Of a DNA stretch of 32,000 nt, positions 3,627 to 31,993 are shown piece by piece. The notes beneath the pieces are model-generated. The model worked only from the letters and a program-made list of their open reading frames with translations. It was not told where the DNA came from and ran no database searches. Within the stretch, counting starts at the first letter, position 1, and every line of letters begins with the position of its first letter. Origin of the DNA: Candidatus Iainarchaeum sp. (lineage in GTDB: Archaea > Iainarchaeota > Iainarchaeia > Iainarchaeales > CSSED10-239); assembly GCA_028700115.1 (NCBI GenBank), contig JAQVTI010000001.1, positions 30,001 through 62,000 on the forward strand, read 5' to 3'. Made by a program: the position numbers and the translations under genes.

Positions 3627-5255
3627 ATGCAAAAATACACAGAAATTCTAAAAAAGTTAAACTATAACTTTAAACAAACTGATTTGTATAAGTATAAACC
3701 TTTTTTTGGAAATATAAAATATTTACTTGAATATCAAGAAGCTTTAGAAAATCCACTTCTTGCACAAACACGTATTCTTAAAAAAATTATTAAAAAAAAT
3801 AAAAAAACAGAATATGGTATAAAATATAATTTCTCAGAAATAAAAACAATTAATGACTTTCAAAAAAAAGTTCCAATAATCACATTTAAAGATATTGAAA
3901 AAGATATTGAAAGACTTAAAAAAGGAGAACAAAATATTTTTACAAAAGACAAAGTGGTTTATTTTGCATCAACTTCAGGAACAACCTCTAAAATAAAACT
4001 AGTCCCTGTTACAAAAGATAGAGTTAAAAACTTCAAAAGAGAATTTTCTTTATGGGCACTTGACCTAATTAAAAAAAGTGCAAATGTATTTGGTGGAAAA
4101 ACACTTTATTTTGCAGGCCCTTATTTTGAAGGAGAGACTGAAGGTAATATAAAATATGGAAGTATTTCTGGTTATTTAATATATAAAGCTCCTTGGTTTA
4201 TTAAAAGTAAGATTACAAATAAAGTTAGAATTTATAATGAAATGAACTTTAATAAGAAAATTAAAAAAATGGCAATTTCTGCTCTTAAAACAAAAAACAT
4301 AACCCAGATTGGATTTACTACACCAATTGAAGCAATTTTATTTTTTGATTATATTAAAAGAAATAAAACTAAACTAATTAAAGAGATTGAAAAAACAAAC
4401 AAAGAAAGAGCAAACTATCTTAAATCAATTGAAGATTTTAAACCAATTAACATCTGGAAACATCTAAGCTTAATTAATTGTTTTAAATCAGAAACAAATA
4501 TGATGTATATCCAAACACTTCTTGAAAAATTAGGAAAAGAAATTGAAGTTAGAGACCCAGGAATTAATGCTTCTGAAGGTAGACTTTCAATTGGTATTGG
4601 AAAAGACGGAGTTTCTGGAATTCCTCCTTTAAATGAAAGCTTTTTTGAATTTATTGATATTAATAAAAAAAATGCAAAACCAATAACAATAGATAAACTT
4701 AAACTTAATGGAAAATATAAAGTAATAATTACAACTTCTGAAGGACTTTATAGATACGATATGGGAGATGTAATTACAGTTACAGGTTTTAAGAAAAAAA
4801 TACCTTATATTAGATTTTATAATAGAGAAAATTTTTTAAACATAGCAGGAGAGCTTGCTTACGAAGATGAGATTGTAAAAGCCATGGTTAAAACTATTAA
4901 AGATTTAAAAATTAATATTAAGCATTATACATTTTTACCATATATTAAAAATTTAAGTAGAAAACCAAGATATGAAGTTTTAATTGATTTTGAAAAAGAA
5001 TTAAATGAAAAAAAAATTAAAGAATTTATTAAAAAACTAGACTCTAATCTACAAGAAATCATAAATGATTATAAACAAATGAGAAATGAATTTGGTAGAC
5101 TAGACACACCTGTTGTTTCTGTTCTTAGAAAAGGAAGCTATGATATGTATGATAAAAAAAGAGTAGTTGCATCAGGAAACCCTAAACCTATAAATATATG
5201 TAAAGATGCAGGTTTTAGAAATAATTTTGAAATTGAAAAAACTTATAAACTTTAA
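3627..5255 (+). CDS. GH3-family adenylate-forming acyl-acid amido synthetase-like protein
   Basis: GH3/ANL motifs in order: STSGTTSKIKLVPVT (phosphate loop), INASEGRLSIG (YxSSE-like), and GLYRYDMGDVITVTGFKKKIPYIRFYNREN (the GH3 hallmark YRxGD..v.gf.n..P.f.F..R). Confidence 0.72.
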   Translation: MQKYTEILKKLNYNFKQTDLYKYKPFFGNIKYLLEYQEALENPLLAQTRILKKIIKKNKKTEYGIKYNFSEIKTINDFQKKVPIITFKDIEKDIERLKKGEQNIFTKDKVVYFASTSGTTSKIKLVPVTKDRVKNFKREFSLWALDLIKKSANVFGGKTLYFAGPYFEGETEGNIKYGSISGYLIYKAPWFIKSKITNKVRIYNEMNFNKKIKKMAISALKTKNITQIGFTTPIEAILFFDYIKRNKTKLIKEIEKTNKERANYLKSIEDFKPINIWKHLSLINCFKSETNMMYIQTLLEKLGKEIEVRDPGINASEGRLSIGIGKDGVSGIPPLNESFFEFIDINKKNAKPITIDKLKLNGKYKVIITTSEGLYRYDMGDVITVTGFKKKIPYIRFYNRENFLNIAGELAYEDEIVKAMVKTIKDLKINIKHYTFLPYIKNLSRKPRYEVLIDFEKELNEKKIKEFIKKLDSNLQEIINDYKQMRNEFGRLDTPVVSVLRKGSYDMYDKKRVVASGNPKPINICKDAGFRNNFEIEKTYKL

Positions 5256-5292
5256 AAATGGATATAAAATATATAAAAGGAGATGATCTAAT

Positions 5293-5418
5293 ATGCCATG
5301 TTTAAAAAGAACAGTATCTAAAAGATTACAAAAAAAACCAAGTAATAAAAAACAAGAACAAAAGGAAGCAGTTGAAAAAAAATTACATGAATACCTAAAA
5401 AAGAAAAAAAATGAATAG
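5293..5418 (+). CDS. unannotated 41-codon Lys-rich ORF (MPCLKRTVSKRLQKKPSNKKQEQKEAVEKKLHEYLKKKKNE)
   Basis: Below the ORF-track cutoff and read by hand. GGAGATGATC at 5279-5288 matches 9 of 10 positions of the consensus SD GGAGGTGATC and ends 4 nt before the ATG. Its stop (TAG, 5416-5418) overlaps the ATG (5411) of the next gene, which suggests translational coupling. Confidence 0.45.
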   Translation: MPCLKRTVSKRLQKKPSNKKQEQKEAVEKKLHEYLKKKKNE

Positions 5419-6487
5419 AAAATATTTTTATAAAAATTATTTTGAAGCAAGAAATAAATTTATAGAATTATCAAAAAAAAACAAATTTGAACAAGAAAAC
5501 TATAAGATTGAAAAAAATTTAACTATAGATGTATCTTTTAAAAAAACAAATAAAGATAAATTAATTATTTTTTTATCTGGGGTTCATGGAGTTGAGGGTT
5601 ATTTAGGTTCTGGTTTTCAGAACTTATTTTTAGATAAATTTTTTCAAAAAAATAAAAATAAATCCTCAGTTCTTCTTATTCATTCTCTTAATCCTTATGG
5701 ATATGCAAACAATAGAAGATATAATAAAAATAATGTAGATTTAAATAGAAATAATATTGAAAACTTTAAAAATGTTAAAAATATTAATCCAAAATATACA
5801 GAAATTTTTAGAAACTTACTACCAGTATATAATCCAAAAAACACTAACTTTTTTACAGTATATTTTTATTATTATATAAAACTATTTTTACAAATGATAA
5901 AATATGCTCCATCAGATGTAATTAATGCAAGTGGTTTTGGACAAAACATTGATTCAAAATCAGTTTGCTATTGTGGGAATAAAAAGGAAAAAGAAACTTT
6001 AATTTTAGAAAATATTTTAAAAAAACACACTAAAGAATTCAAAAAAGTTATATTTGTAGATATACATTCTGGAAGTGCAAGAAAATACGAAATTGCAACA
6101 TACACAAATTATCCAGAAGACTCTAAAGAAATTAAACTAATTAAAAAAATATGGAAAAATACAAAATCTAGATTTACAAAAGCAAGAGCAATGAATCATA
6201 TTGGTTCAGTTGAAGATAGTTTTTATAAAAATTGTAAATCTAAAGAAAAATACGATATTACTTTAGAATATGGAACTATTCTTAGATTTTCTATGATTAT
6301 GTCACTTAGTTATCTTGCAAGACTTTTAGTTATTGAAAACTCAATTTATAATAGAAAGAAAAAAAGAAAATATAAAAAAATTAAAAGAAGAATGAAAGAA
6401 GCTTACTTTCCTGAAGACGAAACATATTATCTTTTCTTTAAAAAAAGAACAAGTAAATTTATTAAAAGAATTTACAAATATTTCTAA
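5411..6487 (+). CDS. M14-like zinc metallopeptidase/amidase (DUF2817-type, AstE/AspA-carboxypeptidase clan)
   Basis: HGVE (HxxE zinc ligands) within LSGVHGVEGYLGSG. IHSLNPYGYANNRRYNKNNVDLNRN (NPxG...R..N.VDLNRN core). A later VDIHSG supplies the third His. Strongly basic C-terminal tail. Confidence 0.6.
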   Translation: MNRKYFYKNYFEARNKFIELSKKNKFEQENYKIEKNLTIDVSFKKTNKDKLIIFLSGVHGVEGYLGSGFQNLFLDKFFQKNKNKSSVLLIHSLNPYGYANNRRYNKNNVDLNRNNIENFKNVKNINPKYTEIFRNLLPVYNPKNTNFFTVYFYYYIKLFLQMIKYAPSDVINASGFGQNIDSKSVCYCGNKKEKETLILENILKKHTKEFKKVIFVDIHSGSARKYEIATYTNYPEDSKEIKLIKKIWKNTKSRFTKARAMNHIGSVEDSFYKNCKSKEKYDITLEYGTILRFSMIMSLSYLARLLVIENSIYNRKKKRKYKKIKRRMKEAYFPEDETYYLFFKKRTSKFIKRIYKYF

Positions 6488-22025: not shown

Positions 22026-22637
22026 TTAATTTATTGTACAAACTCCACCATTACAAGTATAACTTGTTCCTAAAGCAGAAGAACTTAAATAAGGATTTGG
22101 CATTTCTATACCCACTTCAAATAAATTTACTTCAGATGAAGCAGTTTGTTTTTTCACAAAAATATCTAAATCATAAGATCTACAATCCCCAATATCTGAA
22201 ACATCAATTGGACCTATAAAAAAACCATTTTCAAATAAACTTATAACTTCAGAATTATCAAAATAATAATTAACTCCATTAAAAACAGTATACTCTTCAG
22301 AAGTTACACTTGAATCAACCCCACAACCTTGATAAATATTTGCACCAATAAAAATTGCAGTCCCCCCATGTGCTTTATAAGTAATTCTACAACATTTATC
22401 TTCTGAAAAATTTAATTGATTTAATTCTTCTTCGGAACTTAAAGTAGAATTCCCTTGAGTGTTTATTGTATTTGTATTTAAACCACAATTTACAGAACAA
22501 ATAGTAGAATCATTAAATGAAATATCTCCTGTAACTTTTAAAACAATTGGTGCATCAAAATCTGTTATTGCAAAAACTGTTCCAAAACTTAAAATAAAAC
22601 TAAAAACAAAAAATATATTAAAAATTTTAAAATTCAC
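22026..22637 (-). CDS. secreted Cys-containing protein (203 aa), unknown function
   Basis: Signal peptide MNFKIFNIFFVFSFILSFGTVFA|ITDF. GTG start with GGTGAT 4 nt upstream. Shares a 38-bp upstream element with the pilin-like gene at 25175..26872. Confidence 0.5.
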   Translation of the reverse strand: MNFKIFNIFFVFSFILSFGTVFAITDFDAPIVLKVTGDISFNDSTICSVNCGLNTNTINTQGNSTLSSEEELNQLNFSEDKCCRITYKAHGGTAIFIGANIYQGCGVDSSVTSEEYTVFNGVNYYFDNSEVISLFENGFFIGPIDVSDIGDCRSYDLDIFVKKQTASSEVNLFEVGIEMPNPYLSSSALGTSYTCNGGVCTIN

Positions 22638-22705: not shown

Positions 22706-25087
22706 TTATTCCTCTATATAATTAAAATCATAAGAAACTTCTTCCTTACAAAAATAAACATAAATAAAATCATATTTAGATTGACCATATTCATCTTCAA
22801 CTGTAAGTTTAATTTTTCTTTTATCACAAATATTTATTTCAAAAAGATCTTTTAAAATTCTTTTTCCATATAATAAATCTAAAACTTTATTTTCTTTAGA
22901 AAAATTAATTGGATTTAAAAAAATATTTTTTAAATTTTCATTTTTAAATTTATTAAAAACCCCAAAATTAAAATCAAAATAAGGATTTTGAATTATAAAA
23001 TTACAATCAGAACTTAAAAAAATATCTGAATAAGTTTCTTCCCAAACACAAGTAGTCTCCCCAATATTATTTATAAAAGAAGAAGTAAAAATTATAGGTT
23101 TTTTGTATGCATGATAAATTTTATTTTCTGGAGTTAAAATATCTACATCAAGATATTTCATTTTTATATATAACTCATCACTTGAAACTCTACCTTCTTC
23201 ATCTTCTCCTATAAGTGTAATTAAATGATTTCCAGGCATAATATTTAATTCTTGTGGGGTTGCAGAAAAATTACATTCAGAACTTAAAATAATTTGTTCT
23301 TTTTTATTTTCATCATAATCTTGTATCCATTCACAAATTACTTCCCCAGTAGGATCTTGATGATCTGAAATAAAATTAATTATATCTTCTTGATTATATT
23401 GAGTATTTGCAATAGGAGAAGAAATTGTTGCTAGATAAGGAACTCTACTTTGTAGATATGCAGTAATATATTCACCGCTTTCACTTAAAGCTTCAACTAC
23501 AACTTCAGTATCTTGTAAATTATTATAAGTGTGAGATGTTGTATCAAAAGTATAATCTAAAGGTAATCTTTGTAAATTATCATATTTACCATAAGGACTT
23601 ATTCCAAAAATTACATCATATTCAGTTGTATATAATGATGGAAGTCCATATCCTGTACTATTAATATCATACATTGTATTTGTTTCAAATCTTAATCCAG
23701 GATGATTTAATGTATCATCATAAGGTATACCATCAGGGTCATAAGTAATTGCATTATAAGGATACCAATATTCTATTTGATTTTCATCTACATGATAAAT
23801 AACAATACCCCCATAATAATTAGGATAATCTGGACTTCTAGATCCAAATAAATATTTATCTTGTGTATTATTTGAAGCAAATCTATTTTCTACTAAAAAA
23901 TATTCTCGATCATTCATCTTAGTTTCATCTTTTAAAACATAAGCTATTTGATATTGATCTTGATTATAAACATCATAAATACCAGCATCTTGAGAATCAA
24001 TTTCTTCAGCTTCTAACCAACCTAAAAACATTTTAGACCATGAATCAAAATTTATAGGATTATTCCCATAACCATAATTATTAGACATCATAGAAACACT
24101 ACCAAGCCCCACACCACCATTTCCTTGATTAAAAGGATCATGTGCATATAAATCTGGAAGACCTAAAATATGTGCAAACTCATGAGTAAAAGGAATAACT
24201 TCTGCTCTACAGTCTTCAGGATGATTTTGATCTTCAATCATATATTGACAATGAGTTGAATTTATCTTATTTGAAATAATAGCTGTATTCCCATAATAAA
24301 GCCCTTGAACAGAATAATTTGTAGTTCCATTAAAAAGTCTTACTTGGTCAGCAAACAAACCAAATCCTTCTTTTGTTCCTGATCTAATTATACCTATACC
24401 ATCTATTCTACCATCATTATCAGAATCATATTGACTAAAATCAACTAAGGAGTCCATAATTTCAATAGTATCTGGAATTAATTCAAATACAGTTGCACTT
24501 GTTTGGGAATAATATTCATAAGTATGAGGTAATAACACCCAATCATAAACATCAAATGTAAGATTTAAATCCCCATAAGATTCATGTAAATAATATTGGT
24601 TTACACTTATTCCAGAACCATCTAAATAGTTTTCAGAATTTAAAAGTGCCTCAAAATCTGAAGGAGTTATTTCTAAATCATGTGGTTTATCAGAAAATTC
24701 AACCATAAAAATAGGAAACCTTACATTTCCTTCTAAAGGTGAAGTCCCCCAAACATTTTCAACTGTAGTTACAATTGTATCTTTATTTCTAGGAATTACT
24801 TTTTTTAAATCAGAAATAACTTCTTGCATAGAACAATAATCTGGAGTATATGAAATATCTCCAAAAACTAAAGGTTGACAAAAATTATTATCTATATATA
24901 TATTTTCTTGTGAGATTTCAAAAATATTAGAATTATCTAAATTAATAGTGATATTTGGATTAATATTTACAATATTATTATTTTCTTCAGAAATATTTAT
25001 TTGTTGTACATTATAAGCATAAAGATAGTTAGAAAATAAAAAAAAACTTATAATTAAAATAATATAAAAAATATAATATTTTTTCAT
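22706..25087 (-). CDS. secreted M6-family (immune inhibitor A-like) zinc metalloprotease with tandem C-terminal Cys-pair domains
   Basis: Signal peptide MKKYYIFYIILIISFFLFSNYLYA. HEFAHILGLPDLY (24146-24184), which is the M6 signature HExxHxxGxPDxY. FPIFMVEFSD upstream block. Two repeated C-terminal modules (GEVICEWIQ...LSSECNF and GETTCVWEE...LSSDCNF). Confidence 0.72.
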   Translation of the reverse strand: MKKYYIFYIILIISFFLFSNYLYAYNVQQINISEENNNIVNINPNITINLDNSNIFEISQENIYIDNNFCQPLVFGDISYTPDYCSMQEVISDLKKVIPRNKDTIVTTVENVWGTSPLEGNVRFPIFMVEFSDKPHDLEITPSDFEALLNSENYLDGSGISVNQYYLHESYGDLNLTFDVYDWVLLPHTYEYYSQTSATVFELIPDTIEIMDSLVDFSQYDSDNDGRIDGIGIIRSGTKEGFGLFADQVRLFNGTTNYSVQGLYYGNTAIISNKINSTHCQYMIEDQNHPEDCRAEVIPFTHEFAHILGLPDLYAHDPFNQGNGGVGLGSVSMMSNNYGYGNNPINFDSWSKMFLGWLEAEEIDSQDAGIYDVYNQDQYQIAYVLKDETKMNDREYFLVENRFASNNTQDKYLFGSRSPDYPNYYGGIVIYHVDENQIEYWYPYNAITYDPDGIPYDDTLNHPGLRFETNTMYDINSTGYGLPSLYTTEYDVIFGISPYGKYDNLQRLPLDYTFDTTSHTYNNLQDTEVVVEALSESGEYITAYLQSRVPYLATISSPIANTQYNQEDIINFISDHQDPTGEVICEWIQDYDENKKEQIILSSECNFSATPQELNIMPGNHLITLIGEDEEGRVSSDELYIKMKYLDVDILTPENKIYHAYKKPIIFTSSFINNIGETTCVWEETYSDIFLSSDCNFIIQNPYFDFNFGVFNKFKNENLKNIFLNPINFSKENKVLDLLYGKRILKDLFEINICDKRKIKLTVEDEYGQSKYDFIYVYFCKEEVSYDFNYIEE

Positions 25088-25150: not shown

Positions 25151-25181
25151 AAAATAAAAAAACCTTAAAAAAATCTAAGGT
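25151..25181 (-). terminator. hairpin plus T-tract at the 3' end of the pilin-like gene
   Basis: On the minus strand, ACCTTA-(8 nt)-TAAGGT (25162-25181, includes the TAG stop) is followed by TTTTTTATTTT. Confidence 0.35.
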
Positions 25182-26872
25182 GTTGTTTTTCCAATAAATA
25201 CACATAAACTACCATTTGTATTTGTTACACAACTAGGAGATAAACTATATCTTTCAAAAATATCTGGATGATTTATATAAACTTTTAGAGAACCATAAGA
25301 AGAAATATCTTCTCCTTCTAATTTATTTATACATACATAAATTTCTCCATTAGAGTTTATAACTTTTTTACAAAACGCATAATTTGGAGTAATATTATTA
25401 GATATATCCCAAGTAGATATTTCAAAATCAGGATCCCCAACAGATGGTGTTCCAGTAAATTCAAATTTATAAATTCCTTCTGAATTACAATTAAATTGAT
25501 ATGTGTGATCTCCAGAACTTACATCCCCTAAACTATAAGATGAATTACAACTATTTCCTACTAAACAACAATTATTTGTTGGATTCGAAGTAATTGAATT
25601 AATAACATTTAAATTTAAATTATAAGTATCAACACCTTCTCCATTAACAGTAATTAAAAAATTATTATTAAGTAAAGCAGAACTATTTAATGGATTCACA
25701 CTTAATTCAAAACTAAAAATACCCCCATTATCACAATCAATATTACAAATACCTTCTTCTCCAAAATTACAAACCCCATCTCCACAACATGGTGAACAAT
25801 TAAGTGCATATGGGTCATTATGACAAATAGAACAATAAGATATAGAACTTTGACAAATATCATTAGTAATATTTAAACAAGCTAAAAGACCACAATCATC
25901 TGGACAAGTCCCATTTGCTCTTTCTAAATCATCACAAACTAAATCCCCACAACTACAATCTTCTAAACAATTAGAATAATTTTCTCCATCTTCACAAATT
26001 GCATTCCCACAACATATACCAGTAATATTTCTTATATCACAAACACCTGTTGTTTGACCACTTATAATTTTACAATATGCTTCTTGACAATCACCTAATT
26101 CAGAACCTAAACTAATACAATCAGAATTATTTTGACAAGTATTATCAAAAGGCCTACAATCCCCACCCAAACAATATCCATCTTCTGAAGGATCTGATTT
26201 AATTATACAATATGTTCCATCTACTAATTTTTTTTCTACACATCTACCCTCTTCACAATTCCATTTATAACAAGGATTAGGAACACCAAAATCATTTAAA
26301 CAATCAGATGGTTGAACACAATCAAAATCAGAAACACATTCTCCATCTATACAAACCCCAAAAGAACAAGAAACTCCATTTGTTAAATTTTTTTCAACAC
26401 AAGTTCCTTCAATAGAACATTCATAAATAGTACAGTCATTAGAAGTATCTCCACATTGATTAAATTCCAAATAAGGATTACATTCAGAACTATTAGCTAC
26501 ACAAACCCCATTTACACAAGTTCCAGGATTATTTAAAGAAGTTGTACAATTACCAGAAGTTAATAAAGTCCCAACACAATTTCCATTTTCATTACAATAA
26601 TCTAATATACATTCATTATCTTCATGTATAGAACAATCATCATTAGAATCACATTCAAAATCATCATAATTAGGAGTACCCATATCACCAGTATCATTTA
26701 GAAAATCAGAAAAAGAATTTGAAGTACTACTAATATCTGTTGCTTCTTGTGTTTTTTTATTAATATTATTTAAATAAAAACTCCCAAGAATAATACCTCC
26801 AATTATTAAAATCCCTAAAATTATTAAAACTTCAATAGAAACTTGCCCTTTTAATTTAATTTTTTTTTTCAA
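25175..26872 (-). CDS. archaeal type IV pilin-like (class III signal peptide) surface protein with a large Cys-rich repeat ectodomain
   Basis: N-terminus MKKKIKLKG|QVSIEVLIILGILIIGGIILG is a basic stretch, then a KG|Q prepilin-peptidase-type site, a QxSxE motif and a hydrophobic helix. By my count 56 Cys in 565 aa: three ~55-aa 8-Cys modules, then three C-G-[DN]-x-[IV]-C-x(7-9)-C-x2-D-C modules. TTG start with GGTGA 7 nt upstream. Confidence 0.7.
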   Translation of the reverse strand: MKKKIKLKGQVSIEVLIILGILIIGGIILGSFYLNNINKKTQEATDISSTSNSFSDFLNDTGDMGTPNYDDFECDSNDDCSIHEDNECILDYCNENGNCVGTLLTSGNCTTSLNNPGTCVNGVCVANSSECNPYLEFNQCGDTSNDCTIYECSIEGTCVEKNLTNGVSCSFGVCIDGECVSDFDCVQPSDCLNDFGVPNPCYKWNCEEGRCVEKKLVDGTYCIIKSDPSEDGYCLGGDCRPFDNTCQNNSDCISLGSELGDCQEAYCKIISGQTTGVCDIRNITGICCGNAICEDGENYSNCLEDCSCGDLVCDDLERANGTCPDDCGLLACLNITNDICQSSISYCSICHNDPYALNCSPCCGDGVCNFGEEGICNIDCDNGGIFSFELSVNPLNSSALLNNNFLITVNGEGVDTYNLNLNVINSITSNPTNNCCLVGNSCNSSYSLGDVSSGDHTYQFNCNSEGIYKFEFTGTPSVGDPDFEISTWDISNNITPNYAFCKKVINSNGEIYVCINKLEGEDISSYGSLKVYINHPDIFERYSLSPSCVTNTNGSLCVFIGKTTP

Positions 26873-26896
26873 AATAACTCACCAAAAATATATAAA

Positions 26897-26979: not shown

Positions 26980-27076
26980 ATCTACAAATTAAAAATATTA
27001 TTCTAATTAATTAAATATATTTATATACCTTAAATTATTTTAATTTATTTTTAGTAAAAAAGCAAAAACATATTTT

Positions 27077-27161
27077 GATTAAAAATATATACAAATATTT
27101 GATTAAAAATATATACAAATATTTGATTAAAAATATATACAAATATTTGATTAAAAATATA
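27077..27161. repeat. tandem repeat, 24-bp unit GATTAAAAATATATACAAATATTT, 3 full copies plus a 13-nt partial
   Basis: Identical units at 27077-27100, 27101-27124 and 27125-27148, with a partial at 27149-27161. Each unit junction forms the perfect 10-bp palindrome CAAATATTTG (27092-27101, 27116-27125, 27140-27149). Confidence 0.85.
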
Positions 27162-30737: not shown

Positions 30738-31121
30738 TTAAAGTTCTTTTTTCCAAAATCCATGTAAGTTACAATATTCTCTTGCAATAACTTTTTGACC
30801 TTTCTTAACACAAAAATTAACTATAGGTTTATCTTCTGGTTTTAGATGCTTAATATAACTTACATCATCTACAATTAACTCAATCCATTTAATATAATGC
30901 CCTTCTTCCATAGGATGTAAGACTTCACCAACAATTACTTCATAACCATTTTCTGTTTCTTTGATTACAGGAACATGCTTTTCGTTTGCTGCATCAGTTG
31001 TATTTTCTTCAAGTCTAGACATAGGCTTATTACAACAAACAAGTTGACCCATACCAGTATCTAACACTTCAACTATGTTTCCACAAATCTCACATTTGTA
31101 AACTTCTTTTAATTTAGTCAT
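30738..31121 (-). CDS. dfx: desulfoferrodoxin (2Fe superoxide reductase)
   Basis: N-terminal desulforedoxin-like centre YKCEICGNIVEV...LVCCNKPM. Centre II ligands EKHVPV, HPM, EGHYIKWIE, CNLHGFW. GAGGTG SD 8 nt upstream of the ATG. Confidence 0.92.
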   Translation of the reverse strand: MTKLKEVYKCEICGNIVEVLDTGMGQLVCCNKPMSRLEENTTDAANEKHVPVIKETENGYEVIVGEVLHPMEEGHYIKWIELIVDDVSYIKHLKPEDKPIVNFCVKKGQKVIAREYCNLHGFWKKEL

Positions 31122-31143: not shown

Positions 31144-31497
31144 TTATTTTTTTAAAGACTTCTCAATAGATTTAACACCATACTCAAAAGAAAAACCATC
31201 CATATTCAAAGAAACTTTTCTTTTTTCAAGTTCATCTAGAAACTCTCTATAAGACAAACCAGAAATTTCTGCTCCTTCTGATAAATTAATTTCTCTTTTT
31301 TTATAAGCTTCAATTGCTTTTTTTAGTTTATACTCAGAAATATCATTTTCTATTAAATGCCTAATATACTCAGACTCACTTATGTTTTTTTCTTTAGAGA
31401 TTAAATATACACTCTCCATAACAGAGTCTTTTAATCTTAAAGTCTTAACATTCATTTTACTACAATCTTTATATTCTTTTGATTTCATAAAAACCAC
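31144..31497 (-). CDS. putative antitoxin-like DNA-binding protein: ribbon-helix-helix segment fused to a UPF0175-like domain
   Basis: RHH-like KTLRLKDSVMESVYLISKEKNISESEYIRHLIEND, then UPF0175-like AIEAYKKREINLSEGAEISGLSYREFLDELEKRKVSL. Start uncertain: GTG at 31497, ATG at 31488 or ATG at 31455. Confidence 0.5.
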   Translation of the reverse strand: MVFMKSKEYKDCSKMNVKTLRLKDSVMESVYLISKEKNISESEYIRHLIENDISEYKLKKAIEAYKKREINLSEGAEISGLSYREFLDELEKRKVSLNMDGFSFEYGVKSIEKSLKK

Positions 31498-31993
31498 ATA
31501 TTTCTTTTAAATAATTTTTAGGTATAGAATCACAAATAATTCTTAATTTATCTTTTAATCCATTTTTCTTAATTTTTTTATGTTTATACAAATAAAACAT
31601 AAACTCAACAATGTTTGAACATAATATATTATTTTTCACACAAAAACTATAAGGCCTACCATTATCAATAAACACAATTGCCTTAATTTCTTTTGCAAGC
31701 AAGATACTAAAATATTCTCCTGAATTTTTAGATACTTGAAATGGTAAATTTTTATTAACTAAAGTTTTTGGTTGTTTAATAAGTATTTTTTTATCTTCAA
31801 CTAATTTTAATAAAAATCTAATATCAAATGGAAGATATAAACTTTTGTCTTTAAAATATGTTATTTCTTCATAAACCTTTTTAGTCATCACTAAATCATA
31901 ATGTTCTAAAAAGATATTTATTAAATTAGTTTTAACTAGATGAATATAAAAAGAGGAATCTAATATAGCTAAAGGTTTTTTTGAAATAACCAT
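31469..31993 (-). CDS. PIN-like nuclease domain protein (DUF3368-type), putative toxin
   Basis: LAILDSSFYIHL (N-terminal Asp), KKVYEEI (acidic residue), SGEYFSILLAKEIKAIVFIDNGRPYSF (GE..a..LA.e....lliDd..aR). Sits next to a UPF0175-like gene, the usual partner family. Confidence 0.55.
   Translation of the reverse strand: MVISKKPLAILDSSFYIHLVKTNLINIFLEHYDLVMTKKVYEEITYFKDKSLYLPFDIRFLLKLVEDKKILIKQPKTLVNKNLPFQVSKNSGEYFSILLAKEIKAIVFIDNGRPYSFCVKNNILCSNIVEFMFYLYKHKKIKKNGLKDKLRIICDSIPKNYLKEICGFYEIKRI

Follow-up and report, generated by a model that had tools for sequence, protein, structure and literature searches.

What does a protein do that begins like an archaeal pilin and then carries most of its 56 cysteines in a single long array? 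The question is raised by a gene on the minus strand of a 32,000-nucleotide stretch of Candidatus Iainarchaeum sp. DNA (contig JAQVTI010000001.1, positions 30,001 to 62,000), which we analyzed over its full length and refer to as the window. A preliminary description of the locus had proposed a disulfide-knotted adhesin displayed on, or at the tip of, a type IV pilus-like fibre. We found that the gene has a conserved and previously unremarked partner, a gene coding for a secreted M6 metalloprotease, and this pairing changes the function that is most likely for its product. We judge it somewhat better than an even bet that this DPANN archaeon uses the protein as a modular surface stalk or adhesin, built like a type IV pilin, and that the protein and the M6 protease act as one surface unit. 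The protease partner is what is new here, a modular pilin-like surface protein being of a kind already known. DPANN archaea are believed to rely on other cells, and the proteins through which they make contact are little known.

The gene and its cysteine content

25175–26872, minus strand: whole gene, coding for the 565-residue cysteine-rich surface protein with a class III signal; open reading frame with its stop codon at 25175–25177
26879–26883, minus strand: ribosome-binding site GGTGA, 6 nucleotides upstream of the TTG start codon (26870–26872)

The TTG codon is the first possible start after the upstream stop, and both TTG and GGTGA are kept in a 65%-identical orthologue (locus L002) and in a paralogue (L001). 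An exact count gave 56 cysteines in 565 residues (9.9%), in agreement with the preliminary description, compared with 113 in 8997 residues (1.26%) for the other 27 open reading frames of the window. None of them falls within residues 1–73, 48 lie within residues 74–380, which is precisely the part that had been mapped to 25733–26653, and eight are found in the remainder. The protein closest to that of the window, P0001, is an NCBI "hypothetical protein" from a metagenome-assembled "Candidatus ainarchaeum sp." (DPANN) and is 99% identical to it. Over residues 73–204 of the window protein, P0001 shows a few residue differences in the cysteine modules; one of these, Gly200 to Cys (FGVPNPC to FCVPNPC), gives it an odd total of 57 cysteines.

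The N-terminal signal

26846–26872, minus strand: leader peptide, residues 1–9 (MKKKIKLKG), with predicted cleavage by a prepilin peptidase behind Gly9 (family motif; KGQV site)
26738–26845, minus strand: mature N-terminal helix, residues 10–45 (QVSIEVLIILGILIIGGIILGSFYLNNINKKTQEAT), a putative pilin-type alpha-1 helix or membrane anchor (motif, AlphaFold2 model, Pfam, hydropathy)

Assignment of the N-terminus to the class III (prepilin-type) signals, more precisely to those of the EppA/Epd kind, is well supported by sequence comparison, and the reading KG|QVSIE given on first inspection of the locus is upheld. The signal, MKKKIKLKG followed by QVSIEVLIILGILIIGGIILGSFYL, is composed of a basic leader ending in Lys-Gly, of Gln at position +1, Ser at +3 and Glu at +5, and of more than 20 hydrophobic residues. 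No small-x-small site comes after the hydrophobic stretch, and position +9 of the QxSxExxxL motif is occupied by Ile in place of Leu. Hydropathy is maximal at residues 11–29, and the helix of the AlphaFold2 model spans residues 13–45. The same organization was observed throughout the family: among the 64 sequences that bear the motif, the window protein included, Lys is found at −2 in 54, Gly or Ala at −1 in all 64, Gln at +1 in 62 and Glu at +5 in all 64, and the helix is kept to about residue 45. The processing sites of the Methanococcus maripaludis pilins that have been studied by experiment are KGQV in EpdB and EpdC, KGQL in EpdD and KGQI in EpdE, and the substrates of EppA carry a conserved Gln+1 and Glu+5 (PMC4371748). 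The Epd-type system 1 is found in methanogens and DPANN archaea (2026 preprint, bioRxiv 10.64898/2026.04.22.720090).

Profile searches are consistent with this assignment. The full Pfam model PF04021 (Class_IIIsignal) aligns to residues 8–33 with 18.9–19.1 bits (E ~1.3e-3), a match that stays under the gathering threshold of 23.7 bits, and 26 of 41 family N-termini are matched by the same model at E ≤ 0.01, the best at 1.5e-6. The NCBIfam model TIGR04205 (class III signal protein of the archaeosortase D/PIP-CTERM system) matches the N-terminal helix only, with 22.2 bits (E 1e-4) for a cut-off of 65 bits. Among PDB sequences, the best match to the N-terminal profile comes from 6w8u, an archaeal pilin, and keeps the register of its mature N-terminus (E 0.07).

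A Pfam score below the curated threshold would also suit an ordinary Sec-secreted or type II signal-anchor protein, whose likeness to a prepilin would be a coincidence in an AT-rich, Lys- and Ile-rich proteome; the genome has about 22% G+C, which favours Lys, Ile, Leu and Asn. We consider this very improbable because the K-G-Q-x-S-x-E motif is invariant, at a fixed place, over more than 60 relatives. The length of the hydrophobic stretch and the lack of a small-x-small site behind it argue in the same direction, as does the neighbouring M6 protease, which carries a normal Sec signal of this genome, MKKYYIFYIILIISFFLFSNYLYA, that differs from the N-terminus described here.

Pairing with an M6 metalloprotease gene

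22706–25087, minus strand: partner gene, coding for a secreted zinc metalloprotease of 793 residues from the M6 (immune inhibitor A-like) family; Sec-type signal, motif HEFAH (TIGR03296, PF05547)
22026–22637, minus strand: possible third member, coding for a 203-residue secreted protein with 8 cysteines and no family match; weakly resembles the product of the gene that follows M6 at the corresponding place in L015 (14422–15675)

The M6 gene starts 87 nucleotides downstream of the class III gene, on the same strand. Its product exceeds the thresholds of both protease families (133.7 versus 110.8 bits for TIGR03296 and 25.3 versus 22 for PF05547) and ends in PKD/immunoglobulin (Ig)-like repeats, with no anchor of its own. 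Membership of the 203-residue protein in the same unit is doubtful, as its gene is not conserved at the other loci.

An M6 gene adjoins the relatives that have an Ig-like C-terminal region at every locus with readable flanks, in about nine lineages. It lies downstream of the class III gene in L002, L004, L013, L014, L015, L016 (two copies), L017, L030 and probably L027, upstream of it in L023, L024 and L029, and about 1 kb upstream in L008. For P0003, P0004, P0024, P0020 and P0009 the contigs stop where the gene does and are uninformative on neighbours. When the pairing was tested on six further relatives, two clear confirmations and one probable one were obtained, the other three being uninformative contig ends; no counter-example was encountered among loci with readable flanks. 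The other neighbours of the paired loci vary and include ribosomal protein clusters, glycosyltransferases and radical-SAM genes. Full-length neighbouring proteases are 35–45% identical to the window enzyme, the HExxH motif is present in all nine neighbours longer than a short N-terminal stub (eight loci, L016 having two), and the five neighbours that were scanned (L008, L013, L015, L017 and L023) reach the Pfam M6 cut-off with 29–44 bits.

Given that the protease lacks an anchor and that its gene tracks the conserved C-terminal head domain of the class III protein rather than the variable rod, the two products probably work together at the cell surface. We found no description of a link between M6 peptidases and pilin-like proteins in the paper-library literature, and nothing relevant on DPANN cysteine-rich adhesins or archaeal M6 peptidases. 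An unexplained link of clade 1 pili with surface peptidases of another family, the transglutaminase-like peptidases, has been reported (Makarova et al. 2016).

Three of the loci have features of their own. In L016 (11112–15894) the class III gene is followed by two M6 protease genes in tandem, and the M6 partner in L008 (28–2843) contains CHB_HEX_C_1 domains, an accessory domain that is also found in several members of the class III family; it seems that the partners take their surface domains from a common stock. In L020 (152–2610), a class III N-terminus, cysteine repeats and an Ig-like region run into an M6-like segment that is 42% identical to the post-catalytic residues 382–643 of the protease; this fusion is a pseudogene or an assembly error, since stop codons break the frame. 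BLASTP revealed no homology between head and protease. The only link of the protease to class III proteins is its PKD-like region, which weakly matches the small class III protein P0063 (E 7e-4).

Family and architecture

When 1.8 billion representative proteins were searched exhaustively with HMMER, 76 relatives emerged, hosted by low-GC, mostly DPANN-like archaea. The family was visible by this route only, word-indexed searches with the single protein and with the family profile giving three proteins each. In an alignment of 14 full-length relatives the plan is fixed: the class III leader runs into the helix, a linker leads to a cysteine-rich array that varies, and the C-terminal region is conserved. 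The array differs by member, with 8- or 9-cysteine modules in some, myxococcal-type CGNGxxExGExCD repeats in many and almost nothing in others. Across the family, the two ends are thus conserved and the cysteine-rich middle is exchanged in the manner of a cassette. For instance, the 732-residue paralogue P0003, from the NCBI metagenome-assembled genome that carries P0001, shares both ends with the window protein and has a different middle. A recent gene conversion of the 5′ ends of the paralogues was rejected because these coding ends have drifted apart at numerous aligned positions and identity between the proteins is about 60% over residues 1–67.

The conserved N-terminal helix is also joined to unrelated ectodomains, made of CHB_HEX_C_1 domains, InlB B-repeats or myxococcal-type repeats, and its identity among such proteins is 55–83% over residues 1–60. 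The same helix heads small proteins of 120–156 residues, comparable in size to ordinary pilins. Conservation of a helix over unrelated cargo is what would be expected if all these proteins had to fit one peptidase and one filament core, although this is an argument and not a proof.

Other members of the family occur in recurrent genetic contexts. In L009 (9170–11605), L010, L011 and L022, class III proteins of 71–763 residues (143 in L009 and 141 in L011) are encoded directly upstream of ScpA/ScpB genes, and in L009–L011 a divergent gene for a KaiC-like ATPase, confirmed by Pfam in L009 only, lies on the other side of the class III gene. In the protein encoded at L009, Class_IIIsignal (22.8 bits) is accompanied by a PKD-like domain. 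In L005 (10001–13447) and L019 (216–4297), a gene coding for a 128-residue class III protein directly precedes one coding for a class III protein of 950–1165 residues, which looks like a small pilin accompanied by a giant modular one. P0014, a related representative, contains CHB_HEX_C_1 and InlB B-repeat domains.

The conserved C-terminal head

25388–25720, minus strand: Ig-like beta-sandwich, residues 385–495, with invariant Cys435 and Cys462 (predicted local distance difference test (pLDDT) score 80–94; family conservation)
25178–25384, minus strand: terminal beta subdomain, residues 497–565, YA[LF]C...C[VI]N...G.L.[IV][YF][VI]N[QH]P...C...G.LC..G, with invariant C501, C514, C548 and C557 (pLDDT ~55–60)

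The region of the class III protein with which the M6 gene is associated is a tandem beta-sandwich of about 185 residues (383–565). It contains eight cysteines, six of which are invariant in the family (C435, C462, C501, C514, C548 and C557). The preliminary description had recorded this part as a cysteine-poor, Asn/Ser-rich C-terminal domain; its composition agrees (28% Asn/Ser), but the region is a conserved domain and not a featureless tail. In the whole-protein model, which has a mean pLDDT of 54 and a poorly predicted middle, the second beta unit occupies residues 500–560, again with a pLDDT of ~55–60. A Foldseek search with this model returned generic Ig-like folds only and no specific pilin head.

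The cysteine-rich middle

26654–26737, minus strand: cysteine-free low-complexity linker, residues 46–73 (pLDDT <50; variable in the family alignment)
26501–26653, minus strand: 8-cysteine module 1, residues 74–124 (module alignment)
26336–26482, minus strand: 8-cysteine module 2, residues 131–179, the one that was modelled (AlphaFold2 pLDDT 90.1, two beta-hairpins)
26156–26320, minus strand: 8-cysteine module 3, residues 185–239 (module alignment)
26012–26137, minus strand: degenerate module 4 with 6 cysteines, residues 246–287 (module alignment)
25733–26011, minus strand: three 4-cysteine CG[DN]x[IV]C...C..DC units, residues 288–306, 308–327 and 363–380 (pattern CG[DN]x[IV]C-x(7-9)-C-x2-DC)

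Between the helix and the head, residues 46–85 are modelled with a pLDDT below 50 and the array proper begins at residue 74. Three 8-cysteine modules and a looser fourth had been recognized in the preliminary description, followed by three C-G-[DN]-x-[IV]-C units, and we recovered all seven, the latter units starting at residues 288, 308 and 363; a further segment of six cysteines (residues 328–362) separates the second of these from the third. The core that had been proposed for the modules, [YW]-x-C-x-[EN]-[EG]-x-C-V-E-K, is exact in module 3 and only approximate in modules 1 and 2, its consensus having been somewhat idealized. Seven invariant cysteine columns are common to the modules of the window protein and to those of P0002, P0004 and P0008, the few relatives in which the 8-cysteine module has been found so far.

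The model of module 2, built from an alignment of ten module copies, has a mean pLDDT of 90 and consists of two beta-hairpins. Because every module has an even number of cysteines and the module fold is confidently predicted, the modules are likely to be disulfide-bonded. Neither the 8-cysteine module nor the CGxGxC unit has a Pfam match at E ≤ 10 except noise, or any NCBIfam match. The profile of the ten module copies had a non-significant best match of E 0.15 against PDB sequences, and Foldseek placed no PDB structure better than E 3.3 for the module 2 model, its weak top rows being cysteine-rich hairpin regions of an Entamoeba lectin, ADAMTS4 and the MSP1 EGF domain. No significant HMM or structural match to named cysteine-rich families (EGF-like, PSI, TIGR02232 myxo_disulf_rpt and others) was observed. 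The 8-cysteine module, judged from its model and from these searches, appears to be a small hairpin domain without a name, as had been suspected when it was first seen.

The CGxGxC...E...C..DC unit has a much wider distribution. It recurs, often in many tandem copies, in unrelated extracellular proteins with esterase, SpvB, peptidase or fibronectin-like regions, where it frequently stands directly before a C-terminal membrane anchor; it has no Pfam model and behaves as a generic, widespread stalk repeat.

Given the strict gene pairing, the cysteine-rich modules could be imagined to regulate or inhibit the neighbouring M6 protease and to keep the enzyme latent or directed, like disulfide-rich inhibitor domains elsewhere, and the weak best PDB matches of the module profile do include small cysteine-rich secreted proteins. 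All of these matches are non-significant (E >0.1), however, and such a role is improbable because the modules are the variable part of the protein: the class III partners of M6 proteases carry myxococcal-type repeats, one module or none, and it is the beta-sandwich region that tracks the pairing.

Filament subunit or anchored stalk

Several observations weigh against placing the protein in a pilus-like fibre. A Pfam scan of the 32-kb window revealed no gene for a prepilin peptidase, a secretion ATPase or a platform protein, and no pilus machinery was detected near the relatives inspected, namely L009 (Pfam), L013–L026 (Walker-A pattern) and L005–L012 (reading of the N-termini of open reading frames). 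The PF04021 match stays under its threshold, as described above. Only a linker follows the helix in the model, with no globular pilin domain, and an ectodomain of 520 residues fits poorly in the body of a filament. The organism of the window and its nearest relatives may be anaerobic, a desulfoferrodoxin gene being located at 30738–31121, which would make extracellular disulfides less certain.

Many archaeal proteins whose signal is of class III are not pilins. The protein could accordingly be an N-terminally anchored surface stalk that never polymerizes and whose N-terminus, cleaved or uncleaved, stays in the membrane, serving as a receptor or an envelope spacer, with the M6 protease merely a co-expressed secreted enzyme. 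This is a real possibility, although we lean against it. It would account for the lack of pilus genes and of a pilin globule, and CGxGxC units are typical of membrane-proximal stalks, albeit in C-terminally anchored proteins. On the other hand, the conservation of the N-terminal helix (55–83%, with Gln+1 and Glu+5 described as invariant) is far above what anchoring needs, and proteins of pilin size carry the same helix. The lack of linked machinery is also less telling than it seems, as pilin genes are commonly unlinked to the machinery genes (PMC4371748).

Comparison with known systems

The Epd pilins processed by EppA (EpdB, EpdC, EpdD and EpdE) are the closest counterparts of the N-terminus, with the KGQV site of EpdB and EpdC, Gln+1, Glu+5, the hydrophobic helix and the full-length PF04021 alignment in common. 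They are small, whereas the window protein adds about 520 residues of cysteine-rich modules and beta-sandwiches. Bacterial type IV pilins of the modular sort likewise have grafted modules, not specific to pili, behind a class III signal and a pilin helix; more than 1,200 such pilins in 264 architectures have been catalogued, including Streptococcus sanguinis PilB (vWA module) and PilC (lectin module), and their predicted place is the fibre tip and their predicted role adhesion (PMC8179133). In these pilins a complete pilin module, helix and beta-sheet, precedes the graft, whereas here there is a helix and a linker only. The window protein is moreover archaeal, with an EppA-type signal, unnamed cysteine-rich units and a fixed protease partner gene.

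The tip minor pilins CofB and TcpB of type IVb systems offer another parallel, in which a pilin N-terminus leads through a flexible linker and a repeat region to a terminal beta-sandwich, and CofB is an adaptor for the separately secreted CofJ (PMC8179133). These are trimeric proteins of bacteria with an adhesin, and not a protease, as partner, and we found no relation in sequence or fold. The class III substrate-binding proteins of the Sulfolobales bindosome also display large ectodomains behind a conserved class III N-terminus and are encoded by genes unlinked to assembly genes (PMC4371748; bioRxiv 10.64898/2026.04.22.720090). Unlike the window protein, they are PibD-processed solute-binding proteins encoded beside ABC transporters, and no such domains or neighbours occur at the window gene. 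The partner protease resembles the M6 peptidases Bacillus immune inhibitor A and Vibrio PrtV in its HExxH catalytic domain and C-terminal PKD/Ig-like repeats.

Proposed mechanism

For the modular pilin-like surface protein that we favour, the following sequence of events can be envisaged. The precursor would be inserted through Sec, its leader would then be clipped at Gly9, and the hydrophobic helix would anchor the protein in the membrane. Most likely, type IV filament machinery would then build it into a pilus-like fibre, or set it at the fibre's end, the fibre consisting of the small pilins with the same helix. Beyond the flexible linker, four beta-hairpin modules of 6–8 cysteines and three 4-cysteine CGxGxC units, presumably with 24 disulfides, would form a rigid, cysteine-locked rod that projects the conserved tandem beta-sandwich head away from the cell. 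Stalk and head would bind a target or retain near the cell a protease that is otherwise unanchored, and the protease would degrade a surface or environmental protein. Adhesion and host contact are candidate functions of the class III protein. A bolder version, which we put forward as a speculation of low probability, makes the head the docking site of the M6 protease, which would amount to a stalk- or fibre-borne "proteolytic pilus" that breaches the protein surface layer of a host or harvests peptides, the exchangeable rod setting its reach and diversifying the surface.

Genomic setting

The window is chromosomal DNA of a small archaeon. It is very AT-rich (G+C ~17–31%) and is filled with housekeeping genes, coding for ribosomal protein L15e, Nop5, fibrillarin, Pus10, an archaeal-type glycyl-tRNA synthetase, RNase HII, UvrABC and pyruvate phosphate dikinase, together with one tRNA-Leu. 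An origin in a mobile element or a virus was ruled out by this content, in particular by L15e, fibrillarin/Nop5, Pus10, the glycyl-tRNA synthetase and UvrABC. Between the glycyl-tRNA synthetase gene and the class III gene's promoter region, the spacer contains a perfect 24-bp tandem repeat, TTTGATTAAAAATATATACAAATA, in 3.7 copies with 100% matches (27074–27161). Scans for terminators and promoters were uninformative in this AT-rich archaeal DNA.

Two other parts of the window drew our attention. On the plus strand, a gene coding for a GH3-family acyl-acid amido synthetase-like protein is followed by a DUF2817 gene (3627–6487), which is unusual for a small archaeal genome. On the minus strand (31144–31993), a gene coding for a small UPF0175-family protein overlaps one coding for a 174-residue protein without family match, an arrangement resembling that of an antitoxin and a toxin.

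Significance

The analysis delineates a family of pilin-type surface proteins that is widespread and whose cysteine-rich rods are exchangeable. The 8-cysteine hairpin module and the CGxGxC unit are both without database models and could enter domain libraries, where they would improve the annotation of surface proteins of archaea and candidate phyla. The strict association with an M6 partner provides a testable hypothesis for how a degradative enzyme could be held at the surface, or on a fibre, of a DPANN cell. If the head is indeed the docking site, small low-GC archaea of the DPANN type would have a protease mounted on a stalk tethered in the membrane or on a fibre resembling a type IV pilus.

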